64,000 nt of DNA from an uncultured Planctomycetales bacterium (GTDB taxonomy: Bacteria; Omnitrophota; Gorgyraeia; Gygaellales; Profunditerraquicolaceae): contig CAZRVK010000003.1 of assembly GCA_964603585.1 (NCBI GenBank), positions 3,693-67,692 on the forward strand. Reading direction: 5' to 3'. Made by a program: the position numbers and the translations under genes. This document shows, one piece after another, positions 1 to 24,000 of this stretch; positions within the stretch are counted from its first letter, which is position 1, and each line of letters opens with the position of its first letter. Below the pieces are notes generated by a model. It ran no database searches and was not told the origin of the DNA. It worked only from the letters and a program-made list of their open reading frames with translations.

Positions 1-1
1 A

Positions 2-3000
2 GGGAGTATGTTTACTTCAATAGCTCCTGTACTTATCTTAAGAGGAGTGCCAGAAGCCTTAGCCCGAGCCAAGCAAAGAGGTATAACAGTGATCATGGTG
101 TTAAAGCCGGCATATGATCTTGAGACCTCAACCCTTGAAGGAGGGTTCAGAGCCTTAACGCCGGTACTATTAGCCAAGGCATTTGAAAGAAGCATACAGG
201 AGATCACCGGAACAGCATTGAAACTACAGGACTTCTTTACTCATGTATACTTACCCAGATCGCCTAAACAGTATCATCCGCAGGTAGTTAAAGTAAAGGA
301 AAAGAGCAAGACATATAAAGTCAGCGGTAAACAGGGAGAAGTAGACCTGTTTAATGAACAGGGCAAAGCTGCAATAGATGCGATATCAGATACAGTTGCT
401 TATACCGAAGCCGCAGCAGTTATTGCAAAACTGGTCAATGACAATACCAATCTCACGCAAGAAGGCATAGATGCAAAACTCGGGAAGACTTTGAAACTTT
501 CGAAGTTCCTGCCGATGCCGGTGGTCGAGACAACGGAAGAAGAAGCGGCATATTTCGCATCGTTAGGCATTACTCCCAGGATTCTTGACCAGGATAATGA
601 TTTTATGATGTGGACAGGCAAGGTACATTTTAACCCGGACACCTTAACACAACACATCAGAGATGATGCTGCAACTCAGCTGCAGACCAGTGGGGTGAGG
701 AAATCAGAAATTGGTAAAACTAACTGGGGATATATTACTGAGAATATCGGCCAAGGCCAAGCGATAAAAATGGTATTGCTTAATGTTGTTTCTCCTGAAC
801 ATACTGCTAGAGACCAAGGGCCATTCCCTGTAGAGACTTTAATCGCTCATCTTCGTAGAAATATGCGAGATTCTTCTTGTGCTGTGCAAATTTATCTTAT
901 TGATATGCAGAAGATATTGAAGCGTCTGGAATATGAAGATAAAATCCCTGGGCAGGCAAGAAGATTCGAATTATGTTATCAAGAAATGGCAAATCTTATA
1001 GCAGATATAGAGCCTTCCGTTGTTGGTTTATCTATGAAATGGGGGTCGGTGGAACCTGCGACTACAATACTTAATAATGTGAGAGAAAGATTGCAGGCAG
1101 GTAAATATATTATACTCTTAGGAAATACTATACCAACCTTTTGCTATTATGAGCTTCTTGCAAAACCGGAATTCAAGGATGCATTTATGGTGGTAGGGGA
1201 AGGAGAAGTCCCTTCGCAAAATATTATTGAAATAGTCTGTGCAAATCGTGATACATTCGCTTTGGAAGGTCGAAGAGATATTTATAAGAGCATATCCGGT
1301 TTGGCATTTATGGCAAACGGCCAGATGATTGGGCCGCGTAGGGAATGTATGGATTTAGCCAAATTTACAATGCCACAAGGGAATGATATTAAGGATCTGT
1401 TTGAGGGTGGTGCTAGTATCCCTATAGAAGGCAGTAGGGGTTGTGCTTGGGGACATTGTACTTATTGTGCAATCCAAGGATTATTTGGCGACCCTGTCTG
1501 GAGGCCTTATAGTGTGGAAGAACTTTTAGCTAGAATAAGGTATTTTGTCAGCCGGGGGCAAAATAGATTTTATTTTATTGATGCGGAGTTTGTAGGCCCG
1601 GTTAAAACCGAAGAAGAATTTGAATCTTCAATGGAGCGGTTGGAAGAAATAGCAGATGGCCTAGAGGCGATCAATGCGGAGTTGCGGCAGCAGAAAAGAG
1701 AAGAGGTGGTTATTACCAGCATTAATGCCCGCGCAAAGGTGTTTTATAATGAGCGTGCTCCCGAAAGAAGGTCGCGCAGCAAAGCAGTATTTGAGAAACT
1801 TAAGAGAGCTCATTTTATGAAGGTGTTTATAGGCATCGAATCGGGATCTTCGGAGCAATTAAGGCGTTATGGCAAAGGTGCTACTGTCAAAGAAAACGAA
1901 GAAGCAATTAGAATGTTAAGGGATGAGATCGGTTTGGATATGGAGCCTGGTTTTATATTCTTTGACCCCGCTGCAACATTAGAAGAATTATTAGAGAATC
2001 TGGCATTTATAAAAAGAATGAGACTGTATGAACTTGATTCACGACTATTAGGGGCTTTGCGTATTCAAGAGGGTGGATCAGCGGTGCGGCTTTATAAGGA
2101 TTTGATTACAGGGAATAAAGATTTGGAAACTGTAAGTTATCCATATCGATTTAAACATCCTGAGGTAGCATATATTGAAACGGTTTTCTCGATTTGGGAA
2201 AGACAAGCGCGATATTTAGTTAAAAAACTGCATAATTTGGAGCGGGAGCATTTTGATCCTAATGCTAAGGCATTTCTTAAAGGATTTATTACTGAATTAA
2301 GAAGTATCGACTTCGAATTTATTGAAGTTTTGATTAATGCGAAGCTGTCGGGTAATAACACGGAAGACGTAGCTAGGATTTATTTGGCTAAAATGAAAGA
2401 TATCTTCGATAGATTAGGAACTGCTCTTACTGTCAATGTGGCAGGCTTTTCACTAGCTGTGATTAATACGCTAATAGAAGAAGATTTGCCGAAAGCATAT
2501 GCTGAGAACACTGTTTTTATGCAAAATATAAAAGATGTACCCCCGGAAAATGATAAGGCAGCTGAGTTGCAGACCTCCTCCTTACGTAAATCTCGCACCA
2601 CAGAAACCGACGCAGCGTTAACCGAGCTATTAAGCCTGCAGACTAAGATGCAAGAGTATGATGAACTCGCCAGAGCCGAGCAGGAATCTTTATCAGCCGC
2701 GCACGCCGCAATCGAATCGCGTGCATCGCCTGTAACTATTTCCGAAGCCACTTTTGAATATTTCACTGGCTCCGCATCGAATTATCCACAAGCTTTAAAA
2801 GATGAGCTAACTAGTCTTCAGTTCCAGTCAAGAAATCATTGGCATTACCAGTTTTTATTACAGCTTTTTGCTGGCAATCAAGATTTGTTAGATGCAGCTA
2901 TTTGGCAAGAAGCTACTAATACGAACAGGACTTTTGTCCAGGTAGTTTTAGGATGTGTGGGCGTTGGTTCTCTGCCCACTCCCCAGGAATTAGGCGTTAT

Positions 3001-6000
3001 CCGTAGGCAACCGACTGCCGGATCAGCCGCAGAGGAGTTCATCAATGAATATCTTGTAATGGGCGGCGGTGGTTTTAATACTTCCGGACCAGCCAGGTCA
3101 ATGATTGATTATTATAGAAGGTTACCTGCCGATCAGCAAGAGGAGTTCAAAGGGAGATTATTGGTTGCCGCAGCAACAGCAAGTTTTGATGATGGAGGGA
3201 ATTCATTATTTATCCAAAAGACTATTTTTGAGATGTTCGGTATTTACATGCCTGCAGTGGGAGATATGGCTAGCTTAGCATCGTTCCTTTGTTTGGATAA
3301 ATGGTTTAAGGATTATGGGCAGTATACGGATCATCCGGATTATGCCCCGACCTTAAGGCAGGCTAAGACGCAACTGATCCTTGTTAATGCAAATAGGATG
3401 GAACTAAATGGTACTTCTAGTTGTGAATCATTAATGAGAGTAAGACTTGCAGATATACATACTAAGCAGAATTTTGACAAGCCATCTAACTGGCTGACAT
3501 TTTGTTCTAACATGCTTTCAGCGGCGCGGTTAATAGATGAAACATTCTTAAGTAAAGGTAAGCTTATATCCGGTAGCGCTGCATCGGTAGGAAATATTGT
3601 TGTTTTAGCTTCGCAGTTAGCCGCAGGCACAATTCAGCATAAGGCAAGAGGGCCGTTAAATTGTAATAAACTCATGGATGCTATCGGCGGATTTGATGAT
3701 ATGTATGCTTGTTTAGCTTCATTTGATGAAGGGACAATTGTTTCAGTATTTGAAGACGGTACATTAGTTTATACACAAACCCATACCACTGACGATGAGC
3801 ATCCGGCTTTAATAGATCATCTCATGCTTTATAAGCAGCGCAGAGACGCGGTAACCGGAATCCCTGTGCTTGATGAAAAAGGAAAAGAGATTTACGATCC
3901 GATGCCGCTTGAAGAGAGGCCTCAGGCCAGTCAAGAGTTGATCAATTTAATCGATCATACCCAAAAAGCTATCTATGTAGGCGCAGGCAGCATGTTTACT
4001 TCCATTGCTCCTGTTTTAATTTTAAGAGGGGTTGCAGAAGCATTAGCTAGAGCCAAGGCAAGGGGAGTATCAGTGATATTCGTATTCAAACCATCTTATG
4101 ACCTTGAGACATCTACATTGAGTGAAAATGGGGAATTCAGGTATTTATCTCCTAAGCCTCTTGCTCAGGCAGTAGAGAAGAGCATTAAAATAATCACCGG
4201 CACCACGCTTTCATTATCGGACATGTTTAGTCACGTGTATTTACCAAGAGTCCCTAAGAAGTTTCATCCACAAACTAAGAATGTCAAGGCCAAGAGTATC
4301 GGTTTTAAGGTAGCGGCAGGAAAGGATCCGGTAACTGGAGAAAAGAGAGAAGCATATCTGTTTAGTGAACAAGGCAAAGCAGAGATTGCGAAGATTGAAG
4401 ATTCTTTGCCTTGTACAGTCACGGCTGCTAAGTTGATGGCTATTGTCAAAGTTAAAGAAAATCTCACGCCAGAAGGACTTGCCGCAAAAGAAGGCAAGAA
4501 CTTAAAGGCCAGCAAGTTCATCGCCCTTCCCGCGGTAGAGACTACCGATGCAGAAGTTGAATATTTCAGGACTCTTGGGATTATCCCCAGGATTCTTGAT
4601 AAAGATGGAGATTACTTTATCTGGACCGGTAAGGCGCACTTCATACCGGATACTATCACTGGATATGTTAGGGAAGATGCGAATAGCTTAGGCTTGCAGA
4701 CTAGTGGGGTAAGGAAGGATGCGGATAGTGCATTGATATCTTCGAAACAAGGGATCATGGATCTGGAGAAGAAGAATAATTTATGGAGAGGACATGGTCT
4801 TTTGTTAAGGAATAAACATACCAATACAGGGTTGGTTATTTTGGCCGAGTCTAAGACCGGGAAATCTAATATTGCAAACCAGGTTCTTAATCTTGATCCT
4901 AACGGGTGGGAAATAATCGCGAATGACTTTATAGAATGGACCTTCGATGGCGATACTAATTCTCTTTATGCCGGGCTGAGATTTTCAAACAAGCCATCCA
5001 TTTTTTGGTTTAGAAACGAAAGCAAAAGAAAGTATGTAAGACCCAACCATATTGATAAGAGAGAATGGGTTTTAGTTACAAAAGTATATTGTTTGGTTAA
5101 AGAAGGGCAGAGTATCGAGGATGTGTTGCGCTATAACCAGGCAGGAGGAGAAACGAGAAAACCGTTAGCAGAATTCCCAGGCATAATGGATATTGCGATT
5201 AAGATTGATGTTCCACCCCAGTTAAGCAGCGCATATTTTATTTCTGCTGCAAAAGAAATAATCACTACTTTCCCCAAAGTATTTAGCGCGAATGGTTTTG
5301 CTGAAGAGAAGATTAAAGGACTAAACCAGCTTTATAAACGCGTAGATTTTCATAAGGTTGCGGCTTTCTTATTTAAGAGGGATGGTAAGGCAGCGGTTGT
5401 AATGTTAGGTTCTGATGTTGAAAAAGATGCATTATGGGATGATAAGAATGGGATTCTTAAGGGTAATGTTGATGAGTTAACCCTTTGGATAAATCACGTT
5501 TTTGGGTTAGATCTTCGCGGATGGGAATTGATAAGGGATATAAGGAATCCACCGATTATTTTCCGTAATAGCGCAGTTTTTACAAGCTTTAACGATGATG
5601 AGCTCGGAGATGAGCTGGAAGTCGAACATTATGTATTCGCCGGCATATTTTACATTGGTGATGAAAAAATGATAGCCAAACGGGTAAAAGCGGTACAGCG
5701 GCCAGCTTTTAAAACATACGAGTACCCGGTTGACAGAGTTGATGAATTTTCCAGAGAATTGAGGTCGCGAATTTTCCCTTGCCCCAGAATAAGTACTCCT
5801 TCTGGGGAGGTTTTAGGGGTTAAGGAAGTAATATTGCGAGAGCTAGATAGTGTAAAAAAAGAGCAATTTAGCAGCCCGCAGAAGCTCAAAGAATTAATAT
5901 CCCGCTACGTAAAAGATACTCCTGGTATAAGCGATAATAATTTGCATAGTAGCGTGGAACAAATATATGCACAGTACTCCTTTGTCACAAAAGCCTTTAA

Positions 6001-9000
6001 AGAAAGACCAGATTTTGACCAGGAGATGTTGTTTAATATGGCTTTTGTATTTATGCTGTATCTGCATAGCGGTCAGCCGCGTTACCATATTGTTAAGCCT
6101 TATGCCGTGCATCCCATGGCCGTTGTTTCTAATTTAGTAATAAATTACCTATTGCCAGTGCATCCCAGCTCTGATGAAGTCGATTATTACAGTGATTTAA
6201 ACATTAGGTCAAAGGTATTTGCCGTTATTGCGGGATTTTTACATGATACTGTGGAAGATATTGCGAAGACATCGTTAGGCAGGCAGTTTGCACCAGATAA
6301 AGAAGAATCACAGGTTGAAGAGCTTCAAGAAGAGGTTTTGGAAGCGATTGAATCCGTGTTTGGGCCTGAAATTTGCTGGCTAGTACGGATTCTTTCCAAA
6401 GAATATCGTAAGGGAATAACGCCAGGAGAAAAGTTACAACGGCAGGAGCGATATGTAGAAGGTTTAATGGAAGGCCCGGTAGAGGCTCAGTTAACAAAGC
6501 TAGCGGATTGGTATAGTAATTTTGCAGAGATTGTTTCTAATCCCGCTGATAGCTATGTGTTCTCATTTGTAGAAAAAGAGTTGCCTTCAGTTTGCAACCT
6601 TATGGATGGAAATCTTGTGCTTCCCAATAGAATACAAACACGCTTTTTAAATGATTTGCTTGGTTTAAGCAGCGCTAGAAGATTAGATTTACCCGGGAAA
6701 GGCTTATTTACTGAAGAAGAATGTGGTAGAATCTTAGATATAATTTATAGTAAGCTGGGTTCAAGAAATCCTCTTCAGACTAGCGGAGTGAGGAAGGGTT
6801 TGTTGTTAGAAAAAGTATATATATCCAAGAAACTTGCGGATATTGATTTAAATACGCTTAAGAAAGAAATCCAGGCTGGTTTTACTGCAATCTGTGATAT
6901 CAAGCGCATATTTGCTGGGGTACAGACGGTTTTAGTAAAACCAAGTTTAGCAACATTAAAGAATGCACAGGATAAAACTACGACCAATCCACTTTTAGTC
7001 GAAGCGATGATTGCGGTTTTACAGGAGTATGGCATACCGAGGATTATTTTAGGTGAAGGATGTGTGGTTGGCAATGATATGCATGCTATCTTTTCACAGA
7101 CCCAAATGTACGAGATAGCGCAACGTTATGGAGTCGAACTGGTTAATTTAAATGAAGCTTCGCAAACAACATTGACGGTTCCTGGTGGGCTTATTAGCAA
7201 AGAAATAAAGGTGGCAGAAATAGCTGCTCAATGTGATTTGATTATTAATATGCCAATAATGAAAACGCACGCGGAATCGGTTATTTCGATTGCGATGAAG
7301 AATCTCAAAGGCGTATTATCCTGGGCAGTAAAGAGAAGATTTCACATGAAAGGTGTTTTTAAGAGCGTAGTTGATTTAAATAAAACATTGCCTAACCAAT
7401 TAGTAGTTGTGGATGCTATAAGGGCTATGGAAGGGTTTGGTCCTGCCCATGGAGAAGTGGTAGAAGTCGGCAGGATCGTAATTGCGGGGGATGCTTTGGC
7501 CGCAGATATTGTATGCGCGCATATCATGGGAATTCCTTGTATTGAAATACCGACTATCCAATTAGCTACTGCAGATGGATGGGGGATACAAAATCCACAG
7601 GTAGTAGGCGATGATATTGAAAACGTAAGGCATTCAATCGGCAGGCCATTTAATAGGCCGTCATATAAAGACGCTATACGTATGCCGTATGCGCATGTTG
7701 TATATGGCCAGAAAACATGTAGTGGTTGTTATGGTACTTCTTCAAATGTCTTCCAGTATCTCGATATGACAAATGGCCCTGTAGATTGGGCGAAGAGGCT
7801 AGGGGAAGATTGGAAGATCGAATTGGATTTTTATGTAGGTGATGTTATCCCTGCACATATTGAGGAGGGGCATTTAGCGGTATTGGTCGGAAATTGCGCT
7901 ATCCAAAAAGCAAAACGGCTTGGTTTGATAGAAGAGAAAGGTATTGTATTTGTGGAAGGATGTCCTCCCGATGGGCGTTCCATATTCGAAGCGATAAAAA
8001 GAGGAAAAGATATGATGCAGGATTTCCCACTTCAGACCAGTGGAATTAGGAAGAAGCTGTTCTTCGATATTCATGCCGTTCGCCGATCTTGCCTTGAATT
8101 AAGCCACCCTGATCTTACCGGTACCGGCCAGAGGATTCGCAGTAATGCTGCAAAGCTTCTACGATTTGAAAGTAGTGAAACAGGCGGGATAATCATCTTA
8201 GAAAATATCATTTCTGAGGAAGATGCAAAGATAAAATCTGATCAGCAGCCGGATTGGGATGTATTGTTTGGCGCAGTAGTCTCCAGAAATATTCTGGGTG
8301 AGAGCGAGAATTCCACAGTCCAAGAATATCAGAGAGATTTAAAATGGCTGCCGGATGATAAAGGCAGAAGAGATTTTCATGTGCATAGCAGTCTTTCGGA
8401 TGGAGCAAGGACCATCGAGGGGGTAATTAGGGAAGCCGTAAGAACAGGCACTAAGTGGATAGCAATCTCTGACCATAATACTGTTATCGGTATGGATAAG
8501 AAACTTGAATTAGGCAGTAAATACGGTGTAAATGTTATCCCTGCATGTGAGTTTGAAAGTTCCGTAACAGTCAATTCTCTCACACGGGGGACTTTATTCG
8601 GGACAAATCATATTTTAGGATATTACTTAGATTGGAATAATCCGCAAATAATTGAATTATGCAAGAATCAGCATTCTATACAGCAATTCCGTGATTTATG
8701 GCAGGCGTATATATTGCAAAGATTTATTCGTCAAATAGGCCTTCCTCTTAAGCATTTTGATACAAAGATGCCTAATGGTGAAACAGTAACGATAAATCCC
8801 TTTGACGTTGCGACATTGATACCGGTGGCGATTCAAAGAAGGATTATCGCATTTGAAGAAAATGGTTTTACAGAAGAAGCAGATAAGGCAAGGATAGTGC
8901 TTGACGGATTAACAGAGGTAGGAGCCACAAGACGTTTAAAAGGAGAATACGTTCAAGGATTGATAAGTTTAATTGAAAAAGCGCTCCAGAATGAAGGGCA

Positions 9001-12000
9001 GTATCAATTATCAGCCGAAGAGAGAGCTCTTATATATAAGCTTTTTGAGTATGCTGATCTTAGCGTTTTATGGCAGGCAAAAAGTGTTTTAGCTTCGTAT
9101 CTTAGAGAGACTAATAAATTAGACACGACAGATATTTATGTTCAAGATATCGCAGGTATTTTTGGGGCTGAAGAAAGATGTAATGTTACTTATGCTACAG
9201 CAGAAGAAGTGGTAGGGAATATAAGAAAATCTGGAGGCGTTGCGGTTTATGCGCATCCAGGTTGGTACTTTGCCAATATTTTCCGTGAGCTCGGAATTCA
9301 AGAGACCTTGGATGGTGTCGCAGGCTTGATTGAAGGAATCAATCATAATACCCAGGGAGGTATTTCGGGAATAGAGGTTTATTATCCTTTTCAAGACCGG
9401 CTTAAGGGCGTTGATGATATTGCTGGAGAAAAGCAAGAATCGACAAAAGTAAAGTATTTTAGAGAAGTCGCCGAGAAATTAGGAATGTTTAGTACTTCCG
9501 GAGTAGATTGGCATAAAGGTAATAATGAGTTTGAGCATATGTCTACAGGGAGGAATTATAATCTTCATGCTTCTTACAGAATGGTCCTGGATATTCAGTG
9601 GGCTGCTAAGAATAGCCAGGTTATTCTTCAAACTTCATCGCTTCGCAAATCGCCCATTTTACAAAACAGTGTTCATATAGGCGGGCATGGTGAAGGATTA
9701 GGTTCTGTTTTTATTTTGCCCGAGAAGAAAACGCTTTCAGGATTTAGTCTTGATAACGGTGGATTTTTTAAGACATTTTTCCGAAATAGTCGAGGGGATG
9801 AATTTCGTAAGCAGCGTGCTAAAGCGCAGGAAGTCTTTGGATTTGTTCCTTACGGCAGTGTCCCGGTATCTTTGCTTGGCCGTGCTCCTCCCAGATTACG
9901 CATTATTCCTGTTTCTTCAAGACCAGCGAATATCAGAGTTGTCGCAGGACTTGTGGCAAAGATCGCGGCTGGCTTAAAACAAAGTTTGCCTACCGGAATA
10001 AAAATAGAGATAGCTGAACCCGCGTTATGCGACGATCTGTTCACAGCAATATCTGTCCCTTATTTAGTTTATCGGCATCAATATGCTTTACCGTATAGCA
10101 TAGAATCAGTATCTGCCGAAATCCCCACTTTAATTATTACTGATTCCGATCTGACTGGTTTCGGTCCTCAGGGGGAGATAAAAAATTATCTTTTTGGCAG
10201 GACATATCCCGCCAATAATATTACTATTACATCGCTTTTTAGATTTCAGCATCATGATAAAAAAGTTCTTCTTGGCAGGAATATTAAGAACGCGCTTCAT
10301 GAAATTGGACATTTGTTTGGATTAGGAACCAGCCGTGCGCGCCTAAGCGCTATGCAACATTGCGCTGATTTGAGGTGCGCGATGCACTTTACTGTTAATG
10401 TAGAAGAGCTCGATAAGGTTAACACTCGTTTTTGTAAAGCATGCAGCGCAGCTCTTGAACAACTGGGTGTAGTCCGTTCAGGCCGTTCTCTTGACAATGG
10501 CGGCACCGAGGAGAATGCGCTTACTTTCCCCAGGGTTAACCCGACAACAGCTAAGTCTTGGAATAAGCTAAAGGCACTTTTTGAGCGGATGAAGAAGGTA
10601 CATATGCTTGATATGTTTAACGCTGACCCAGAGCGCTTTAAGAAGTTTTCCATTCGTTTCGAAGATATGCTGGTAGATTTCTCAAAGAACATAATTGATG
10701 AAGAAGTTTTAACTGAACTTCTTAATTTAGCCCAAGAGGTTGGGCTTGGCGATGCCATTGAGGCAATGTTTACCGGCGCCAAGATCAATGGGACGGAAGG
10801 CAGAGCGGTTCTTCATACAGCTTTAAGGAATCTTTCGAATACTCCGGTTTATGTGGATGGCGAAGATGTAATGCCTAAGGTCAACCGTGTTTTAGCTCAG
10901 ATGGAAGAGTTCTCTGGAAAAGTTATATCCGGGGAGTGGGTGGGCTATACCGGGAAAGCAATTACAGATATTGTCAATATCGGTATCGGCGGCTCAGACT
11001 TAGGGCCGGTGATGGTAAAAGAAGCTTTAAAACAATATTCTGCGCGTAAAGGTTTAAGAGTGCATTTTGTGTCTAATGTGGACGGAACGCATATCGCAGA
11101 AATCCTCGCAGGCCTTGATCCCCAGACAACCCTGGTTATTATTGCTTCAAAGACCTTTACCACCCAAGAGACTATGAAAAATGCCAATACGGCTAAGGCA
11201 TGGTTCTTAGAAGAAGCAAAAGATAAAGAGCATATTAAGAAGCATTTTGTGGCAGTTTCTACAGCCAAAGAAGAAGTCCAGAAGTTTGGTATTGATACCG
11301 CGAATATGTTTGAGTTCTGGGATTGGGTGGGAGGAAGGTATTCTGTCTGGTCGGCAATCGGGCTTTCCGTGGCATGTTATATCGGTTTCGATAATTTTAA
11401 GCAGTTGCTTGCTGGCGCGCATGCTATGGATAAGCATTTCAGGAATACACCGTTTAACCGGAATATTCCTGTGATCTTGGCTTTATTAGGTGTCTGGTAC
11501 AATAATTTCTTTGAAGCCCAGACCCAGGCGATTCTTCCTTACGATCAACACTTACACCGTTTTGCCGCTTATTTCCAGCAGGGAGATATGGAGTCAAACG
11601 GCAAATATGTCGACCGTAACGGGAATCCGGTCGATTATCAAACTGGTCAGATTATTTGGGGTGAACCAGGAACAAATGGCCAGCATGCTTTTTATCAATT
11701 AATCCATCAGGGGACAAAAATAATACCCGCTGATTTTATTGCTTTTGCTCAAAGAAGCAATCAAGATTTTGATAAAGACCCAGAACTGAAGGCGTGTTTA
11801 GACGAACATCATAGAATATTCCTTTCCAATTTCTTTGCCCAGACCGAAGCTTTGATGAAAGGCAAATCTGCCGAAGAAGTCAGAGAAGATTTTAAGAAGG
11901 AAAATGCCAAAAGAAAAGCTAAAGGCCAAAAAGAGTTAACCGAAGAGGAGATCGTTCGGCTTACTCCTTTCAAAGTTTTTAAAGGCAACCGGCCAACTAA

Positions 12001-15000
12001 CTCGATCATGGCTAAGAAGCTTACACCTTATACACTTGGCGCATTGGTAGCGATGTATGAACACAAGATCTTTGTGCAAGGCCTGATCTGGAATATCTAT
12101 AGCTTTGACCAATGGGGGGTAGAGCTTGGTAAGAAACTTGCGGAAGGGATCTTGCCTCAGCTTGATCCTGAAGCTGAAGTAACCGGGCATGATTCATCGA
12201 CAACAGGTCTAATTGGTACTTATAAAGAAATGGCGGAAAAAGATAACGGGTCTATCGATAATGGCGGTTCTTATGCAAACAATATCCCCTTAGCATCTCA
12301 ATCTTCGATTAAAGCTGTGATCTTTGACTGGGGTAATGTGATAACGAGATTTGACTACGCGCGCGCAGCACAAATGCTGGCAGATCGATATGCCGTGCCT
12401 TTTGATACGGCGGTGCGGTTTCTGGAAGGACGTAATAATGATCCGGCAAATCCGCTTTATCAGCACGAGAGATGGATGATAAATGATATACAGCTTACGC
12501 GCGCGGTGCGGGATTGGATCAAGGCACACGGCGTCTTAAGGGATTCGGAGCATTTTGATTTGCGGCAAGTTAGTGATATCTTTAACAGTATTTGGGATTC
12601 TGATATCCCAGGAGTTGTTCCTTTTATGGCTCAATTAAAAGCAAAAGGGTATCTGGTCCGTATTTTATCCAATACAACCTCAATACATCATCGCTGGTTT
12701 GGAGAACATTCCCAGGCCGCTCAAATCCTTGATTCAAAAGAGCATTTCTATGCCTCATATCGGTTAAGGCTCGCTAAGCCGGATGCAGATATTTATCGTG
12801 CGGCTATTGGGCATTTAAGGTTAAAACCGGAACAATGTTTGTTTATTGATGACACGAAGGTGAATGTCGATGGTGCAAAACGGGTTGGGATAGAAGCGGT
12901 ACAGTTTAATCCGGATGAACCCGTAGCTTCTCTTGATACAATAGTCAATACTTTGATGCGTTTGTCCTCAAAAGAAGATTCTTTAGATAACGGTGGTACA
13001 GCTATCCCGCTCGATCAAGCCCGCTCTGCCTATCGATATATTGGTATCTCGATGGGGGGTAATAAACTTGCGGTATCCATTAATGACGGCAATAACAAGA
13101 TGCTTGCTGGGCCTGCAGAATTGCGTTGGGATAGCGATCATAGGTTTGATAATGAGCAGGTAAAAGATGTATCCCGGGCTGATGAGCTGATGAATACTTT
13201 GGTGGATATGATTGCCCGTCTTGCCGATGCTAATAAGATTGCCAGAAGTAGTTTAAAAGCCATAGGCGCTGGTTTGGCAGGCCCGCTGGATAAAGCTACA
13301 GGTATTTTCGGCTCAGATTTTAAAACACCCAACCTTCCTTTTAATAAGTATCCTTTCCGCGCAGAATTACAGAAACGGCTTCTTGTCCAAGGCATAGACA
13401 TTAAACTGGAAAATATTGATATGTATAACGACGGTGAAGCAGCCTTAAGAGGAGAAAGTTTTTCTCCGGAAGGCGCTTTAGCGGATAAAGACGGCGGGAT
13501 TGTTATTATCGGTGGAGGTATTAATATCGCAGTAAATAAAAAAGGGCATGGGTTTATCTATTTTGGCCCGGTTCAGGATAAAGGAGAGATTAAGGAGTGC
13601 GGGCATAACCTTTATCAGGTAAAAGCCGCTCAAGGTAGAATTCATTATTTTTGGTCTGGAGATAGAACTTTTGGCGGGCATCCTATTGAATTGGGCAACT
13701 CTTCCGAGGCAATTAAAGCAAAATGCGGCAATATGGGTGAAGAATACGTTAGGTTGGGAGAGGAAGCGTTTAGAAAAGTATATCCTGATTATCCGTTTAT
13801 CGCTAAAGGCCTGAAAGATTTTGAGGATAGATCTTCCGGCCCGAATATCCGCAAAAGGATCGCGCAAACGATTGCCAGGGCGAAACAAAGGCATTCGCCA
13901 AGGTTAGATGAATATCTGGCGATCGAAGCAACTGCCGGCCGGCAGAAACGCGCGAATGAACTTGAGCGGGCGATTACTCCCGAGGCGGAAAGCGGTAATA
14001 GAACAGCGCTTCGGCTGATCAGGATTTTTGCCGCAGAGATCGGACAGGCATTGGCTGCTTTTATTGCACACTACCAGGAAGAAGAATTTGTGCGGCACCT
14101 GGTATTGGTTTCGGGTGTAAATGAGAATATGGGTAAGGATGTCTATGAGACTGATGCCGACAGGATTAGCGGAATAGATGCATTTATCAAACATATCCGT
14201 ATGAGCGCGCGCCGTGAGCTGATCGAGCACTTTGGTGTTGAAGCAGACCGTGCAGAGGATATGGCTTCAGGCATTGTTCGCTCCAAGATGGATTACACCC
14301 GTGAACTGTTATCGTATCAGCCGACAGATACGGAAGTAATGGACGCGTATAAACAAACTAAAACTTCAGAAGCATCTTTAGATAATGGAGGATCGAGGCA
14401 AAACTTTACGGTTCTTGTGGCAGAGGATTCTCCGGTAGAACAAGACGAGTATATTGCTAAGCTGACCGCTAAAGGATATAAAGTGGTTCTTGCCAAAGAT
14501 GGTATAGCGGCTTTGAGTTTGCTTGAAAATGGTTTGGATCCGGATCTTGTGCTGACTGATTACAAAATGCCCGGGATGCGGGGAGTTATGCTGGCAAAAC
14601 GTATCCGCCAAATGCAAGCTACCATGCCGATCGTACTGCACACCAAGGAAGATGAGGTTATCGGAACAACTTATGAGATCGCGCCAGGTGAGAAGATCAC
14701 TGGTTTAAGTAAATATGCGCAGGAGGGTTTAGATGAAGTAGACAGAATATGGGCCAAGCTTAATAGCAACCAGAATAATACGACAGAAGGATCTTTGGAT
14801 AATGCAGGAGAATATGACAATGCTTATCCTGCCTCAATGGAGTTGACATCTGAAGAAATGACATTGCCCAATATGATGTTAGAAGAAGTTCAAACAGCCT
14901 TTGGGAAAATTGCTCCTTATAGCATGGGCGCGCGGATGTTCGCTTCTGCTTTAGCGGACAGTGTGGTGATCTCTATTCTGCCTTTTGATGCCCAGCAGGC

Positions 15001-18000
15001 AAGAAACCGGATCGGTTTTAGGGCGCAAGAAGCAATCGCGGTTTATGATGGCCAGATACTTTGGTTCTCCTGGGCGCTTCTAAGGCGTTTTCATAGGATA
15101 CATGAAGTTGATATTCATGTGGATAGCGCGGTATTAAAATATTTCCTTGAAGGGATTTTCTATCTCTATTTTGTTGCTGATCAGTCTTATCCTAAGCTGA
15201 TGCAGGAATGTTTATCGCTAAAAAAACATATTCTGGTTTCTACTTTATATGTCGCACAACACCCGGAATTATTCCATGTAAACGTTGCGCCAGCCTTTGT
15301 TTCTGAAATTAAAGCGAATACTCCCGAGGCATTGCAAGAATACCCCTCTTCCCAGATCAAATGGATTGCATTCGATCTTTATGGTGTTTTGCTTAATGAC
15401 ATAAATGAACAGCCGATCGAAGCGGTGGCCGGGCTGTTGTCTGGATTGAAGGAATTAGGGTATGGGATCGATATCCTTTCTAATGCCACAGCAAAAGAAT
15501 ATAAAGAAGCAAGTAAAATGCCCTTTATACGCTATGTCGATCGATTTTTCCCCGCATTTCATACTGAAACGAAAAAACCCGGGATCAGCGCCTTTGGTTT
15601 ATTGCTTAGGGGGCTGGCGATGCCTGATCCCCGCCAGGCTGTGCTTGTTATCGATGATTCCCAGAAGAACATCTCTGGGGCATCTGAACTCTTTGATCAT
15701 GTTATTTTTTACCAGGAGGGAGCCGATATTAAAGCAGCGTTACTTAAAAAAGGCGTATTTTTGCATGATGAAACTTCTTTTGATAACGGTGGAGAAGTAA
15801 ATCCCGGTATAGACATGCCATTTACCGAGTTATTATTTTTATTGTTGAAAGAAAACGTTTACGGAATAAGCCCGTCGACCTTTAAACTGGTTGCCTCACT
15901 TTTGGGCGTAGGCCAAGAGATCACTCCGGAAGTTATCGAAGTAATGAGAAAAGAATTGCCTCCGGAGTCATTATGGATGCTCCAAAGGGCGTATCGGGAT
16001 ATCGCTCAAAGATTCAATGCCCAGGGTATTGACGTAGCACAGTTTCGCAACAATCCATTTTTCTGGGGGAAGAATGCCGATGGGCAGGCATATCTTTTAA
16101 CCGGGCAGAATCTTTCTGCCGATGCCGTAGTAACAAAATGCGCGGGGTCAGAAGGATTCACCTCTAAGGTCAGCGAGATCGTAATTAAAGGGATACACGA
16201 TATTTTTGCCGCCGAAGGGATTAAGACCGAAGATTTTATTAAATTCGCTGATGCAGGGTCATGGCATGTAAGTATTGCTGCGCTTAAACCCAAACTCGAT
16301 ACCGATGTTACGGATGCGCAGGTCAGACAAGCAAGCGCCGATATTAAGCAGTTAACGCGTAATATGCGGTCCTTCTCTATCATTTTCGATAGGGTGATCA
16401 TTGCACCAAACGGCACGGTAATGGTGGTTGGCTATGATAACAACGGCCAGGCAACGCAGTTGCGGGACGGATTGGCAAAAAGTTACCGGGATTACGAATA
16501 TAGCCGGATGAATATCTTCCATATTACTATTGGACGATTCATTGAGAATCCGCCTCAACAGGTTGTAGAAACTTTAAAGAAGTGGGTTATGGCCTTTGCC
16601 TGGGAACGATTGGGGACGATTAAGGTGGATAGTATTGTTTTGGCAAGCCAGAAGGGCCCGATTATTCAGCCGACGTTTAAGGAGTGGGAAAGATTCGAAT
16701 TAGCAGGAAAACCGGTAATAAGTTTGAGCCTGGTTAACGAATATTCTCGGCCATCGGATATAAGTTTTATTAAACGCCAATTATTTATGTCCGGCGTCTA
16801 TGGTGCGCTTTTCTTTGCACCGATCGGGTTACTCGCGACACTTTATATCGCTCCATTTTCGCTTTTATGGATAGCGGTAGTCCCTGTTATTTCCGGATTA
16901 CTTGGCGGGGTTTTTCTTGCCGGGCTACATTTAATCGAATTACATCTATCAAACCCAACTCCCAGGGCTATTCTTGATGCCGAATGGCTTGCGGATATGG
17001 CGGTAAGGCATGAAAAGAAGGTTCTTCAAGGGCAGGTTGCAGAAGAGTCATTCGATAACGGGGGAGTATTTTCGGAAGGCACAACTCGAGACGATCCAGC
17101 CAAGAAACGTTTCCTGCACGTGGCTGTTGGCGTTATCGGTTTTGTTATTGTTGTAATAATCCTGAATAAGTTAGTTGTTACCCTCGGCCTATTCTCCGGG
17201 CAGAGCCTGTTTGCGCTTTATATCAGTGCCTACGCGCGGTATCCGTTTTGGGTCGCGGGCTTAACTGCTTCATTAGAAGGCGCCGGAGCGGAATTGATCG
17301 GGTATTACCTGGCGCGCAATAATAAAGAAAAAATAAGAACGTGGATTTCTATATCCAGGTTTACCGGGATATTTTTATTCAGGTTATTGATATTAGGCCC
17401 TACAGCCGGATTAGTCGATAGGTTCATTGAATATCTCCTTCCAAAATCCGCCGCCGTAGGGACATCCGATCTTATTTTGCGCGTAACATTATCTTTGATC
17501 CACGGGGTCATTTTAAGCAGTTTAGTTAATTTCCTGGCGCCTTATTTCTGTTTTAGGCTGGAAGCAAGAGCCAGGCTAAAAGAAGGAAAGTTAGCGGAGG
17601 CAGATGATCTAAGAGAAAAGTATACTGCGGCCAAACAACTCAAAAGGACATGGCATTCAATCATCTTACGCATCGGCCCGGTTATTATACAGCATGATAT
17701 TATCCAGAACATTTTCGGTTATGAATTAGCGTATAAGATATTATCACGGTTTGGCATTGGTTTTATAAATTCAATATACCGGAGCTGGATAACTAACCTT
17801 AGCCATAAGGTAAATATAACTTCCACGAATATCCTTGCGGTTACTTCTACGGTCGCATTGATCAGTTTTATCTGGGGGTCAAAGCTAACGGCTATTTCTG
17901 CAATCGCATTAGAGTTATTAATCGTGCTTTGCGAAAAGATAAAGGCCTTCAAAATAAAGCAAGCGCTTAATGATAGGGAGAAATCTTTGGATAACGGAGG

Positions 18001-21000
18001 GGGAAAACAGGCGTGGGATTACAGTGTTATTCAACGCGCGAAAGTCGGCAAGGAAATACCCCGCGTTTGGCAGGATTATTTGCCTGTCTTAGAGCATGTA
18101 ATTAGTGAAGACGATCAATTTATTAGTGACGCATTTCAGAATATATTCGGTTTAGAAATAACCCGTGCAGATATATCAGGCATAAATATCGAGTATCTGG
18201 TCTCTGGTGGCATAAAACACGTTTTTGTTACAACCGTTACGCTTGTGACCGGTAAAAGATATGTGTTTGCACTAAAGCCCACAATTGTCGGTTTAAGCTC
18301 GGAGGACAGGGAAGATATCATGTCTACTATGTGGACTTGGAACGGATTTTGCAAGCGGGGCATCAAAGGGATCGCTAAATTCGGAGCAGACGCGACAGTT
18401 TATTTCAGAGATTTTCATCATTCCAGCATGATCATTGCCCAGGAGTTTGTCCCCGGCAAAACACTGAAAGAAATTATTGATGATACGGATCTTCCTTACT
18501 GGGCGAAGACCCAGGCGGTACGTAATGCCTACCGGGCATACATTACTTTACGCAAAGATAATCTCATTGCCATTACCGATCCGAAACCGGCCAATATCGT
18601 CGCCCTTAATGGTTCTATTTTCGACTGGATAATCATTGATATGGATAAACTGCGCACCGGCAGTGACCCCTTGCAGAGGGGGATGTCTGTCGAAGAATAT
18701 GAGCAAATACTCGATAACTATTATATCGATGAAATTCAAAAGCCTGTTTCAGCTGAAGCCTTGCCTGGAGTTAAGATCTTAGGCCATGGCAATTTCTTCC
18801 CGGCTGATAAAATAATCCATTTTCCTGCTGGCCAACCGTTTCCGGTATTCTTTACGCTTGACACTACCTCACATATCCGAACAGCAAAAGTTCAGATACA
18901 GGCCAAGGTATGGTATGAGGATAAACTTACTGGGGGATGGGAAGAAGCATTTATGACGATGGTAAATGATTATGAAAATGGCTCATATAGGTTCGGGGCG
19001 TATCTTCCAAGTGATTTTGAAGGCAAGTTTACCTTTAAGGCTTCAGTGGATGGCGGGATAAACTGGCATTGGGCAAATAACGGGCCTTTCGATAACAGAG
19101 TGCTTGTGCGTATCGGTAAAGAGGCTCCTTTAGATAACGGGGGAGAAATCAAGACCGGCAAAGAATTTTTAAATTACGAACCCGTAGAGTTAGGATCCGG
19201 GACAAGCGGGATAAGAGGCTTGGTTGTAAACATGTCTGATCTGGAATGTTATATCAATACAGTGGGCTTTTTGGATTATTTGAAAGGAATAGGCCTGCAC
19301 GAAGGAGGTTTGCAGGGAGGGGAATATATTTGTGTTGCCGGAGATTTGCGCTCCAGTACTCCCAGGATAATGCGGGCAGTAGCTCAAGCTGTAGTTGATT
19401 CTGGATACCGTGTCGATAATTGCGGATTCATTCCTACTCCGGCATTGGCGTATTATGCCATGCAAAACCGGCGTGTTAGTATTATGGTCACCGGAAGCCA
19501 TATCCCGGATAACCGTAATGGGATAAAATTTTACAAATCAAACGGCGAGGTACTAAAATCCGATGAGGCAAAGATCAAAGAGCAGGTAACGTATGCAAGG
19601 GGAAATATTTATGCCAAGTTAGGCATGCCGGACTCATTGTTCAATGAGGAGGGGATGTTGATAACTGTGCCGCAATTGCCCCCGGTAAATCCTGCGGCAA
19701 GAGAAATGTATATTTTTAGATATTTGTCCTTGTTCCCGAAAGAATGCCTTGCCGGTAAGAGGATCGTTCTTTATGAGCACTCTTCGGTAGGCAGGGATAT
19801 TTTAGCTGAAATTTTCTCTGGATTAGGCGCAGAGGTTATAAGGGAAGGGAGGAGCGACGGTGTATTTATACCCGTTGATACGGAAGCCATACGTCAACAG
19901 GATTTGGATTGTATAAAAGAGTGGGCAGGTATTTATAAACCATTCGCGCTTATTTCTGCTGATGGAGATGCTGACCGTCCATGGTTATCAGATGAAAATG
20001 GTGTATTACTGCGGGGTGATTTGTTAGGTGTTTTCGCGGCAAAATACCTCAAGGCGGATTTTGCGGCTGTTCCGATAAGCACTAATGACGCGGTTGATAT
20101 CGCGCTTTCCGGAGAGGTAGCAATAGAAAAGACGAAAATAGGTTCTCCTTATGTTATCGCTGGCATGTTGGATGCGGTTAAAAAAGGTTTTCGCAGGGTT
20201 GTAGCCTGGGAAGCAAACGGAGGTTTTCTTTCGCAGACGGACATCGAAATAAATAATAAGCTGCTCAAGGCTTTGCCTACCAGAGATGCGGTTTTGCCTG
20301 TTATCTGCGCGTTGCTTCTGGCTGTTGATTCTGGCAGGCCGTTATCTGATCTTATAAGTGAACTGCCTAAGCGGTTTACTCATTCCGGACTGGTCAAGGA
20401 TTTTCCCGTTCCCGCATCACAATCGGTCATTAAGAGGATCTCTCCCGGGATCACTGATGTTGATGAGGTGTGTTTTAATGATTCTGTTCCGGTATTATTC
20501 CGGGATGGCGCAGTCTTGAGGCTTTTAAATGACAGCGATATATCGAGAAAGCTGTTGGCTTATAAGGCAATGGTTGAAAAGAGATATTTCCGTACTCATG
20601 GCCTTCCGGCGATTGCGAATATTAATTTAGTTGATGGAGTAAGGATCCGGTTTAAAAATAATGACATCATTCACTTCCGGCCTTCGGGCAATGCGCCTGA
20701 ATTGAGATGTTATTCTAATGCGGGGTCTACCGATCGCGCTATGGGGTTAGTTGATATAGGATTAATGAATATAATCCCGCTGTTGGCCTCACCATCTCTG
20801 GATAATGGAGGGGAAATAGATAATGGCGGAGATATTGTTAATACTGATGGTGATTTGCATATAGTTTGGTATGGCGATGATTATCCGCAAGAACAGGCCG
20901 CTGTTTATGAAGGCCGAAAGTTTGTACGGGTATACAGATCAATCAGGATGAATAAAAAGGTTAATTCTCCAGATCAGCAATTACTTCTGCGCCTGTGGTG

Positions 21001-24000
21001 CAGCCGCGCGGATAATCCGGATAAATGGTTTGAAATCCCGGCACAGATAATAAATGATTATGGCGATGGGAGTTACCGTTTTAAAGCGGACTTACCGCTA
21101 TTTTTCTCCGGAACATATACATATGTATTTTCAGCTGACCGAGGCAAGCATTGGTCCTGGTTAAACAATGGCCTGAAAGATAACAGGCGGATTTACAATT
21201 ATGTTTCTCTATTGCCTGATTTGCGTGAACGGGAAATATCTGTTTCTTTCGATAAGAAGGCGTTGTCAATGAAGAAGATCATTGATGGATCCCCTGATAT
21301 AGAAACGTTTTTCCGTTCACGTCAAGGGCAAAGAGGGGTGGCAAAACTCGAGTATTACCGGGATGAAAAACCAGTCGGGTTTGTTTACTATTTCGCCAGG
21401 ACTGAAGTAACCAAATTAACGGCAGAAGATTATAAGGTGATCTTTGCTGATTATATAGATAGTGCGGATGAAAAGCTGGGCGGGGCAGTTGCGATATATT
21501 TCAGCAGAAAAGATATGGCGGTTGTGGTTGATCTATATGGGAACATGCAGGAGGAAGTGATCTTCGGTAACATTGAAGAAAGATCCCGGGGTGAATTAAG
21601 CTGGGATAAGGCCAGGATCGTTATTGAACTTGATAATGACCTTAATGTCCGCAAGGTCAGGCATGAAAGAAGCTTTATGGGGTTATCGCGAATGGGGATA
21701 TCCATACTAATTTCTTCTGCCGGTATCCCCGAATCTTTTCCTGAATTGTATGAAACACTTAAATATAATCTGGGTTTGTGCGATGCCAATGAGATGGTCA
21801 GGCATGTGGAGAGGACAGATAATACTGTGGTTCCCTTAAGTTTGATCTCCAGGATTAATAAAGACCCGCAAACCGCCAAGATCGAGGATATTGAGAGGAT
21901 CAAAGACTTGATTTATTGTAAAAGCTGGGCTATCCGCAGGCTTGTTTTGGGTTGTTTAAAGCAGCTTGTCCAAGTGAACAAGTTCTCTATGGAAGAGCTT
22001 GATGAATTCAGGGGATTTGCAGAACGCTGCGAGATAACCGAGGATCTGCATCTTTTGCGCAGGCAGGCGCTTGAAAGGCCGGAGGATATTACGAGCGCTT
22101 TAGCGGTGCTTTTTGGCATACAGGTGGGAGTAGATGACCTTTCCGGGATGTACGCATATTGGTTTGGCGCTGGCCAAAATAAGAATATTTACCGCCTGAT
22201 AATTTCTTTGCGCGATTCCAGAGAATTTACTATGGCCGCTTCTACTATACGGCATGACGCGATAGGGCAAGGGTTCAGCAAAACAAGAATTGATGAATCT
22301 ACGCGGTTATGGCAGGAATTGTCCGAGGCCGGCTGCCCCTATGTGTGCAAGCTCGGCAAATCCGTATGGGTTGAAGATTACCGTCCGCGTGCTGCAGATA
22401 GAAGTGTCACGCCTTCTTTAAAACCCTGGGTATATTATGATCCGGCATGCCTTATACATAATGATATTAATCTTGTATACAGGGAGTTTGTAGAAGGCGA
22501 TGATTTAGAGGATATACTGGGTGCGGAAGGATTTGCTGACAAGGAGAAAGAAGAAGCGCTCGCCGCCTGCATCAATGTTTATGATAAGCTATGGAGATTT
22601 AACGACGGGGGATATTATATCGGTGATTATAAGCCATCCAATATAATCTTGAGTAAAGACGTAAACGGCCGGTTTATCGGTAAGATAACCGATTTGGATG
22701 CTTTACGCGCAAATGGTCGTCTTGAGGTGGTTTTTAATGCGGTTAAGGTTCATGCCTGTTATTTACCGCATTTAGCGGGGCTCCTGGCTAAGGAGAGAGT
22801 TTCTCAAATAACCGGTTCATATGTTGAGGATTTAGCCGATTCTTTAGGAGAGAACATAGTGTTTAGCCAGGAATTATATCCTTTGCCTTCTTGCGCGGGG
22901 ATAAGTATGGCCATTGAGCAATTCTTGAGTGGATTACATGCAAAATTACAATTGTTTGGGCTTGCAGGTGTCATAAACTTCAGCGTGCCGCTGGTGGAAT
23001 TAGTGGCGAATACGATCCAGCATGGATTAGGGGGAAAGATAGCCGTTGTCGTAAAGACCGATACTGACTGTAATCCTACAGATATCAAGGTATATTGCCA
23101 GGATTACGGATTAGGCATGGTTAGCCCGGATAAGTTGCTCAAACAAAGCTATGAGGCGCATAAATTAAAGAAACAAAGCGAAACAGAAGCTTTGGAGCGC
23201 GATGGGCTGCAAGGTGCGCCGGTACAAAAATGGCACGGCCTCGGGATGCTTAATATGTGCGTTTACCCTGATGAAGTAGAGATCAGGACTCCCGGAGGTG
23301 TATGGATAAAAGAAAATACCGGAGACGTTGGACAGCCAATATTAGTAAAGAAAGGAGAATCAAAATTTTCTTTCGGCACTATGACAGTATTGACCTGGCA
23401 TGTCAAAGATTGGGATCTTAAGAAGGAGGCGGTTTCAGAGGTTCAATCCGGTTCTGCCGCGTTTGGAATAATTCCTGTAAGCGTATTATTCATTTTAGTC
23501 TGGGCCGTAATTTATGGTTTATTTATTAAAGGCGGATGGGTCTCTAAAAAAGAGGAGGTGACGAGATGTCAAGATTTGAACAGCTCGAGTTCACCCGCGT
23601 CATGTCGCGAGAAGCAGGGATATTTATCTTTGCAAAATATCCTGGCTGGTATTATGAGTACAATTTTCTCATTCAGCCCAATGGTAAAGTCCAGGGGAAG
23701 ACAAGTTTTAACAATTGGGTTGAACTTAGCCGTGAATTGTCTGATATGGTTACTGCCAGGGTTAAAACCGTGTTTATTAGCCAAAAAGAACGGATTTCTT
23801 CGTAAGGAAAATGGAGGTATATTTTTATCGCCGGAAAAGAAAACGATTACAAGCCATAGCTTATCTTTGGATAATGGAGGAGAGGTCCAGAAGAAAGCAA
23901 AGATCTCTATGTTTGCCAATGTAGTGCGCCAGATCAATACCGCGGCGCGCGCTATGGGGCTTCATCCGGAGATCCTGGATCGCCTGGTCAATCCTAAGCA

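Follow-up and report, generated by a model that had tools for sequence, protein, structure and literature searches.

Omnitrophota giant genes can surpass 100,000 codons. Here we analyse the junctions between enzyme modules in part of a giant gene of this type, carried on the plus strand of a 64,000-nucleotide (nt) stretch of contig CAZRVK010000003.1 (assembly GCA_964603585.1, positions 3,693 to 67,692), the whole of which we refer to as the window. Our subject is an eight-residue peptide, the LQTS motif (LQTS[GS][VIL]RK), that recurs between the first modules of this gene.

Nucleotides 2..64000 form a single open frame that has no stop codon over 64,000 nt, encodes at least 21,333 amino acids (aa) and is open at both window ends; the remaining five frames contain 640-1,714 stop codons. 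Pfam and NCBIfam matches tile the frame with mutually unrelated enzyme families: B12/radical SAM, two CofD-like modules, a weak HD match, DUF362, PHP and archaemetzincin (Peptidase M54), together with glucose-6-phosphate isomerase (PGI), HAD phosphatase, ROK, response-regulator receiver, PGM/PMM, glutamate dehydrogenase, a phosphorylase fragment, phosphotransacetylase, HD, methyltransferases, a deaminase, a pyridoxal-phosphate (PLP) enzyme and a histidine-kinase ATPase. At codon junctions, dinucleotide usage departs from that of synonymous-codon shuffles by as much as 14 standard deviations (z up to ±14), which excludes naive back-translation, and these strong biases rule out synthetic or back-translated DNA. 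The coding strand has a strong purine/G excess (16,234 G, 11,957 C), with 44% G+C over the whole window. The features that concern us are as follows.

2..64000, plus strand: part of a giant gene of the Omnitrophota type (zero stops; Pfam/NCBIfam tiling; natural codon-context bias)
2..679, plus strand: CofD-like module, C-terminal part, truncated by the window start (aa 1-226; 59% identity to aa 1329-1564; CofD Pfam match)
680..703, plus strand: LQTSGVRK (aa 227-234; in a low-confidence linker, model residues 1-45; stand-alone radical-SAM homologues begin about 20 aa downstream)
704..2566, plus strand: B12-binding/radical-SAM module (aa 235-855, 621 aa; Pfam; stand-alone proteins P0148-P0150, of 606-712 aa, align)
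2567..2590, plus strand: LQTSSLRK (aa 856-863; in low-confidence model residues 650-674; CofD-like alignments of P0158 and P0159 begin here)
2591..4693, plus strand: complete CofD-like module (aa 864-1564, 701 aa; Pfam; alignments to relatives)
4694..4717, plus strand: LQTSGVRK (aa 1565-1572; the alignment of P0159 ends on that protein's own LQTSSTRK)
4718..6772, plus strand: 685-aa module with a weak HD match (aa 1573-2257; Pfam HD E=0.015 at aa 2074-2173; weak PDB match)
6773..6796, plus strand: LQTSGVRK (aa 2258-2265; initiator Met of stand-alone DUF362 proteins 4 aa after it; low-confidence model residues 17-27)
6797..8029, plus strand: DUF362 module (aa 2266-2676, 411 aa; Pfam 150 bits; stand-alone proteins of 396-403 aa align end to end)
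8030..8053, plus strand: LQTSGIRK (aa 2677-2684; C-termini of DUF362 homologues just before it; low-confidence model residues 437-461)
8054..9625, plus strand: PHP-domain module (aa 2685-3208, 524 aa; Pfam PHP; PHP phosphoesterases in PDB; 68% identity to the start of the P0159 PHP unit)
9626..9649, plus strand: LQTSSLRK (aa 3209-3216; motif search), the final copy of the LQTS grammar
9650..9745, plus strand: 32-aa spacer between the two grammars (motif spacing)
9746..9763, plus strand: first SLDNGG, start of the second grammar (7-mer scan)
9764..10486, plus strand: archaemetzincin (Peptidase M54; aa 3255-3495; Pfam, NCBIfam; alignment to PDB 2x7m)

The LQTS motif at module boundaries

The six copies of the LQTS motif all lie in the first 3,216 of the 21,333 aa (aa 227-3216). 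Composition alone predicts 2.4e-5 occurrences of the 8-mer pattern and 0.2 of LQTS in a protein of 21,333 aa. An unbiased scan for similar 7-mers finds LQTS and S[LIF]DN[GA]G as by far the largest recurrent families, the sole other one in the protein being GF.PQG with three members. A sequence-only reading of this DNA had placed the motif at 680, 4694, 6773 and 8030, with degenerate LQTSSLRK copies at 2567 and 9626, and the pattern search agrees with all six coordinates exactly. Successive motifs are separated by 621, 701, 685, 411 and 524 aa, a 32-aa spacer, and then, over the opening part of the second grammar, 241, 582, 237 and 459 aa, which are ordinary protein lengths.

The position of the motif relative to complete proteins is clearest for two units, for which the termini of stand-alone homologues and AlphaFold linkers together cover four of the six sites. 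The best database relatives of the DUF362 unit are stand-alone proteins of 396-403 aa (45-48% identity, BLASTP), whose initiator Met falls 4 residues after LQTSGVRK and whose C-termini fall just before LQTSGIRK. Stand-alone relatives of the radical-SAM unit (606-611 aa) start about 20 residues past LQTSGVRK and end around LQTSSLRK. Only stand-alone proteins, and no giant relatives, were found for these two modules. In AlphaFold models that include the flanks, the predicted local distance difference test score (pLDDT) is below 50 at residues 17-27 and 437-461 of the DUF362 model (mc1a51906d0a0) and at residues 1-45 and 650-674 of the radical-SAM model (ma628489747b7), the folded core of the latter being residues 46-649. 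The four motif copies in these models lie in the stretches with pLDDT below 50, and the flanking cores are mostly at 75-97 (pLDDT by 10-residue block). The sequence-only reading held that its boundary claim would fail if the motif belonged to a folded domain core; all four of these copies are in low-confidence linkers instead.

Other comparisons place the motif similarly. HMMER alignments of the CofD-like unit to its relatives start on the upstream motif, and the alignment to P0159, the best CofD-like relative reaching that far, stops on the downstream one. None of the six copies falls within a Pfam or NCBIfam envelope; the PDB matches of the HD-containing (aa 1573-2257) and PHP modules cover only part of each module. 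That the motif marks module boundaries, as first read from the sequence, is thus borne out at four of six sites by homologue termini and AlphaFold models, with CofD-like alignments beginning and ending at the motif. One module needs renaming: the 'N-domain' of the sequence-only reading is the C-terminal part of a CofD-like module of about 700 aa, of which aa 864-1564 are the complete version. The two versions give rise to the sole sizeable internal repeat detected by self-comparison (aa 1-234 versus 1329-1572, 59% identity). Alignments and structure predictions together support the LQTS motif as punctuation between complete enzyme-sized units of 411-701 aa.

The contigs that carry a stand-alone DUF362 homologue, P0001 (L001-L004), have nearly all called genes on the same strand with intergenic gaps of 100-700 nt, a layout unusual for a bacterial contig, and have no synteny with the window.

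Motif dialects in relatives and a second grammar

An exhaustive HMMER search with the CofD-like unit finds its closest relatives inside long partial proteins. Members of the motif family stand at module junctions in six long fragments, which form five clusters at 90% identity (P0158, P0159, P0160/P0216, P0161 and P0162). Two of the six, P0159 and P0160, are named Candidatus Omnitrophota at NCBI; P0161 and P0216 have names that break off after 'Candidatus'; P0162 carries the label Dehalococcoidales and is possibly mis-binned, and P0158 comes from JGI. Each gene has its own dialect. P0159, which fills a whole 9,995-nt contig, has LQTSSTRK six times along with FQTSSTKK and SQSSSTRK; P0161/L016 has TQTSGIKR three times and TQTSGIKH once; P0162 has TQTSGIKR and TQTSGVKH; P0158 has PQTSALRK; and P0160/P0216 has VQTSALGK and VQSSSFGK. 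The window and P0159 have two orthologous junctions in common – that from CofD-like to B12/radical SAM and one preceding a PHP unit (68% identity just downstream) – and both retain the motif in the dialect of the respective gene, LQTSSTRK in P0159.

The family consensus is [LFVTPS]-Q-[TS]-S-[GSA]-[VILTF]-[RKG]-[KRH]. It describes 23 copies matched by a regular expression that fixes Gln and Ser and by which the family was partly collected; the copies that recur within the window, within P0159 and within P0161/L016 turned up independently of that expression. Among the 23, only Gln and Ser are invariant, both being fixed by the pattern. The residue before Gln is L, T, V, P, F or S and that after it is Thr in 21 copies and Ser in two, and positions 7-8 are RK, KK or KR in 19/23, KH in two and GK in two. 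In these copies the eight motif positions carry about 2-4.6 bits of information, and positions outside them below 1.3 bits. Some junctions have tandem copies of a junction motif (window nt 20795-20830, aa 6932-6943; P0159 aa 48-70; L016 aa 1086-1108; P0158 aa 813-829), as in TQTSGIKRnasrasrTQTSGIKR; another tandem ends in FQTSSTKK. The CofD-like module of P0158 ends with a different tandem peptide, PTGRTGVQPLTGRTGVQ, and the grammar therefore switches within the P0158 gene too. More distant CofD-like matches are without the motif, and a search with the C-terminal part of the CofD-like module found no close relatives in JGI metagenomes, GTDB genomes or IMG/VR. In other giant genes of Omnitrophota, the QTS grammar is accompanied by CofD-like, B12/radical-SAM and PHP modules, which fits a shared block.

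The window itself changes grammar just past the PHP module. The first SLDNGG begins 96 nt downstream of the final LQTSSLRK (in accord with the 100 nt given by the sequence-only reading), and S[LIF]DN[GA]G then recurs in 13 copies at aa 3249-7955, so that the regions of different junction grammar that it had described are present, with the QTS type extending to aa 3209 and the DNGG type occupying aa 3249-7955. A complete PGI lies between SLDNGG and SIDNGG (nt 10487-12273, aa 3496-4090; NCBIfam equivalog above cutoff, 850 bits, model positions 4-542 of 544), showing that the second grammar likewise frames whole enzymes, and is followed by a HAD phosphatase that reaches the next SLDNGG. Relatives of this PGI, 58-71% identical, are also in giant-gene fragments and have other punctuation on either side: RSE[LMVTI]R in P0032/L006 (12 copies; L006 nt 1-8857) and in P0124 (7 copies; from a Candidatus Omnitrophica), and [DN]NGG in P0128/L005 (10 copies in 14 kb). 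To judge from these sequences, punctuation is a general trait of Omnitrophota giant genes. Because PGI has DNGG, [DN]NGG or RSE.R on either side depending on the gene, the identity of the punctuation tracks the gene, region or lineage, not the origin of the module. The cores T-S-[GSA]-Φ-[RK] and R-S-E-Φ-R are alike and may share an origin, which we offer as a lead only.

These comparisons give only partial support to the suggestion, made from the sequence, that the gene grew by separate rounds of module accretion. Modules that travel with the QTS grammar as a shared block speak for it, and the same PGI module under differing grammars speaks against it; the grammar change could equally well reflect a difference in processing enzymes or in compartments.

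Downstream of the DNGG zone the units are mostly separated by single transmembrane (TM) helices and no recurrent peptide is found. All 39 TM-like segments of the frame, as predicted by hydropathy, a crude method, lie after aa 5,600. From aa 9,600 to 21,333 (nt ~28,800-64,000), units are divided by single TM-like helices without a recurrent junction peptide, and many of the helices are preceded by a loose hydrophobic-Pro element (CFMPLA, CLPLA, FMPLA, AFLPLA, CIIPF) that may be a third junction grammar.

Readings of the motif

We consider it about an even chance that the LQTS motif is an exposed recognition site of an endopeptidase that divides a multi-enzyme polyprotein, the cut, the enzyme and the scissile bond all being inferred. 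This reading draws on complete protein equivalents on both sides of the motif, predicted disorder, selection at the peptide level, one dialect per gene and tandem copies. A dedicated endopeptidase would be encoded beyond the window, whether in the rest of the same gene or at another locus, and would release the individual enzymes from the precursor much as happens with viral polyproteins. Candidate scissile bonds are the one that follows the invariant Gln and the basic pair. The single dialect of each gene would reflect the need for all sites to fit the specificity of one enzyme, and S-Φ-D-N-G-G in the neighbouring zone would be a different site, and so probably one for a different protease.

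Several observations weigh against cleavage. Neither the window nor the related fragments yielded a protease of matching specificity when searched with Pfam (at E≤0.5 over aa 1-20,000 and at E≤0.001 over the last 1,333 aa of the window, and at E≤0.01 in five relatives) and with regular expressions for active sites. The motif is absent from the PHP to 2H junction of P0161, and thus does not stand at every junction of the relatives. A codon-restricted DNA pattern for LQTSG[VI]RK has eight matches in JGI metagenomes and GTDB genomes, which we regard as chance because all are in short or out-of-frame open reading frames (ORFs); since this search found no motif in JGI contigs or GTDB genomes, the comparative sample is small, consisting of six fragments collected in part by regular expression. 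A conserved exposed peptide could also serve binding instead of cutting. Moreover, the only recognisable peptidase in the 21,333 aa, the archaemetzincin module, belongs to a family reported to be aminopeptidase-like, not endopeptidase.

The archaemetzincin is homologous to PDB 2x7m and has its HExxH and Cys4 residues intact (HEIGH…CADLRCAM…CKAC). It is located at the exact switch from LQTS..RK to SLDNGG, after the 32-aa spacer and with SLDNGG on both sides, a position at the grammar change that is suggestive but unproven. The frame has one other HExxH, at aa 13322, within chance expectation. As for the DNA-pattern matches, three unrelated contigs (L007, L011 and L014) share an identical stretch of about 56 codons with a chance LQTSGIRK in a short ORF; the stretch has no Rfam match.

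Several known sorting or processing signals can be set aside. Sortase LPXTG has Pro at position 2, where the motif has Gln, and the LQTS sites are internal, with no TM-like segment in aa 1-5,600; Tat and GlyGly-CTERM readings are rejected on sequence grounds; and LQTS[GS]xRK has no Gly-Gly as a double-glycine (C39) site would, Gly-Gly being present in S[LIF]DNGG.

The remaining explanations differ in whether they act on nucleic acid or on protein. An in-frame, read-through DNA or RNA element – a recombination site or insertion scar, an internal ribosome binding site with re-initiation, an RNase site, or a promoter or terminator – might seem to be indicated by the four canonical copies, all of which use AGY for Ser and AGG-AAR for Arg-Lys, resembling a Shine-Dalgarno core, and by in-frame TTG codons 2-5 nt downstream at one junction (aa 2267-2268). 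However, the LQTSSLRK pair departs from this, with TCN for Ser and CGY for Arg, and every P0159 copy is likewise in other codon families (TCN, CGN, AGA), its six LQTSSTRK copies (in L015) using TTA, CTG, CTA or CTC for Leu, AGY or TCN for Ser and AGA or CGN for Arg. Third codon positions vary among the motif copies, and identical residues have identical codons at a frequency of 0.38, near the 0.31 of random synonymous choice; for the diverged halves of the paralogous CofD-like modules the value is 0.44. At several junctions no start codon is paired with a Shine-Dalgarno match, the junction at aa 2677 has no in-frame start at all, and the motifs are not consistently followed by a Shine-Dalgarno sequence and start codon. 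Sites resembling promoters or terminators are neither enriched nor placed at junctions. Given near-random codons, the lack of promoter and terminator enrichment and the lack of a consistent Shine-Dalgarno and start pattern, selection is on the peptide, not the DNA, and we regard a nucleic-acid element as very improbable. We give almost no credence to the motif being chance or a historical residue, that is, linkers copied once that have neither decayed nor acquired a function. The repeat of aa 1-234 at 1329-1572 does imply that at least one motif copy was duplicated along with its module, but the adjoining modules are unrelated, the concentration of information within the 8-mer has no counterpart in its flanks, synonymous sites are near random, and the motif is kept at orthologous junctions although the modules are only 35-68% identical between genes.

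At the protein level, the sequence-only reading had likened the motif to the Leu-Gln-small-residue sites of 3C-like proteases, and Gln is indeed present in 23/23 pattern copies (where the pattern fixes it, the recurrent copies of the window, P0159 and P0161/L016 having been found independently of the pattern), with Leu before it in the window and P0159. Across the relatives, however, the preceding residue varies (L/F/P/V/T/S), and Thr or Ser follows Gln, unlike the Gly, Ser or Ala that typically follows it at 3C and 3CL sites. The sequence-only reading had recognised no such protease domain; Pfam (at E≤0.5 over aa 1-20,000 and E≤0.001 over the last 1,333 aa) finds none in the window either, whether 3C, trypsin-like or of another PA-clan type, GDSG and GDCG are absent from the 21,333 aa, and Pfam at E≤0.01 finds no PA-clan domain in five relatives. 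The analogy is not supported, and cleavage after Leu-Gln by a Gln-specific, chymotrypsin-fold protease of this type is quite improbable. A stronger contender, which we nevertheless think rather unlikely, is that the chain is not cut and that the motif is an inter-module linker within one tethered multi-enzyme chain, serving either for docking or recognition of a partner (scaffold, chaperone, modifying enzyme or kinase) or as a folding spacer. An exposed, unstructured and peptide-conserved element fits any short linear motif, its Thr/Ser and Gln/Lys could be modification sites, and published views of these proteins are of membrane-anchored multi-enzyme assemblies. Against this, the motif lies between, not within, complete protein equivalents, occurs in tandem copies and has no known partner, and in other genes its structural position is taken by different grammars, among them one of the double-glycine type that is typical of peptidase substrates.

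Comparison with known precursors helps to define what an endopeptidase reading of the LQTS motif would entail. As at viral polyprotein sites (picornavirus 3C, coronavirus 3CL; Leu-Gln↓Ser/Ala/Gly), a short conserved peptide with Gln stands at each junction in an exposed linker; unlike them, it is encoded in a cellular DNA genome between housekeeping enzymes, has Thr or Ser after Gln and a variable residue before it, and the searches turned up no cognate protease. With its terminal Gly-Gly and its position on either side of complete enzymes, S[LIF]DNGG resembles the double-glycine leaders cut by C39 in bacteriocin and ABC-transporter systems, whereas the window has no C39 domain and LQTS..RK has no Gly-Gly and would thus need a different enzyme. 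In cyanobactin precursors, processed by the subtilisin-like proteases PatA and PatG, recognition sequences flank the cassettes; Kex2 and furin act at dibasic sites in repeat polyproteins; and the LHCP and RbcS polyproteins of Euglena have conserved decapeptide linkers. These all share with the window a short, gene-specific peptide at every junction, and the window motif mostly has a basic pair at positions 7-8, but they carry short peptides or repeats of single proteins, not dozens of unrelated enzymes.

Giant genes and their possible processing

The window matches Omnitrophota giant genes described as 'Archaeovorins' and as a 'multi-enzyme metabolic cluster'. Like them it is a single ORF of tens of kb (at least 21,333 codons in the window) with a common tiling of enzymes (PGI, PGM/PMM, ROK, radical SAM, receiver, methyltransferases) and many TM helices, and its modules are most closely related to partial proteins, of which several come from Omnitrophota metagenome-assembled genomes. 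Archaeovorins carry glucose-phosphate isomerase and PGM/PMM domains (West-Roberts et al. 2023, 10.1101/2023.11.21.568195), and the 'multi-enzyme metabolic cluster' class has PGM/PMM, receiver, radical SAM and ROK (Nielsen & Lui 2026, 10.64898/2026.06.07.730766). N-terminal C39 or S8 domains have been proposed to cut giant proteins, at cleavage points stated to be unknown, and this blocked structure-based annotation of the proteins (West-Roberts et al. 2023, 10.1101/2023.11.21.568195). The window, which covers only a fragment of its gene, has no SecA-DEAD, C39 or S8 domain, and Pfam finds no omptin domain in it. Junction motifs are not described in West-Roberts et al. 2023, Nielsen & Lui 2026, Seymour et al. 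2023 or a huge-protein survey, and a literature search for the motif strings and for Omnitrophota polyproteins or cleavage sites returned nothing relevant; the LQTS motif family thus appears to be previously undescribed.

The punctuation peptides offer a rule by which giant proteins could be divided before annotation or structure prediction, define exact sequences to be sought as neo-termini in existing metaproteomes, and give a handle on the processing enzymes through their co-variation with motif dialect. The motif thereby makes the question of whether Omnitrophota giant proteins act as one chain or are cut directly testable. Tentatively, and at somewhat short of even chances, we suggest that these genes encode true cellular polyproteins, in which dozens of ordinary enzymes would be separated by lineage-specific QTS, RSE.R or DNGG punctuation and released by dedicated proteases that differ from zone to zone. 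If cleavage does occur, housekeeping enzymes would be produced by polyprotein processing in a cellular organism; and if the polyprotein reading is true, the housekeeping metabolism of these bacteria would rely on a virus-like expression strategy, with motif and protease co-evolving gene by gene.

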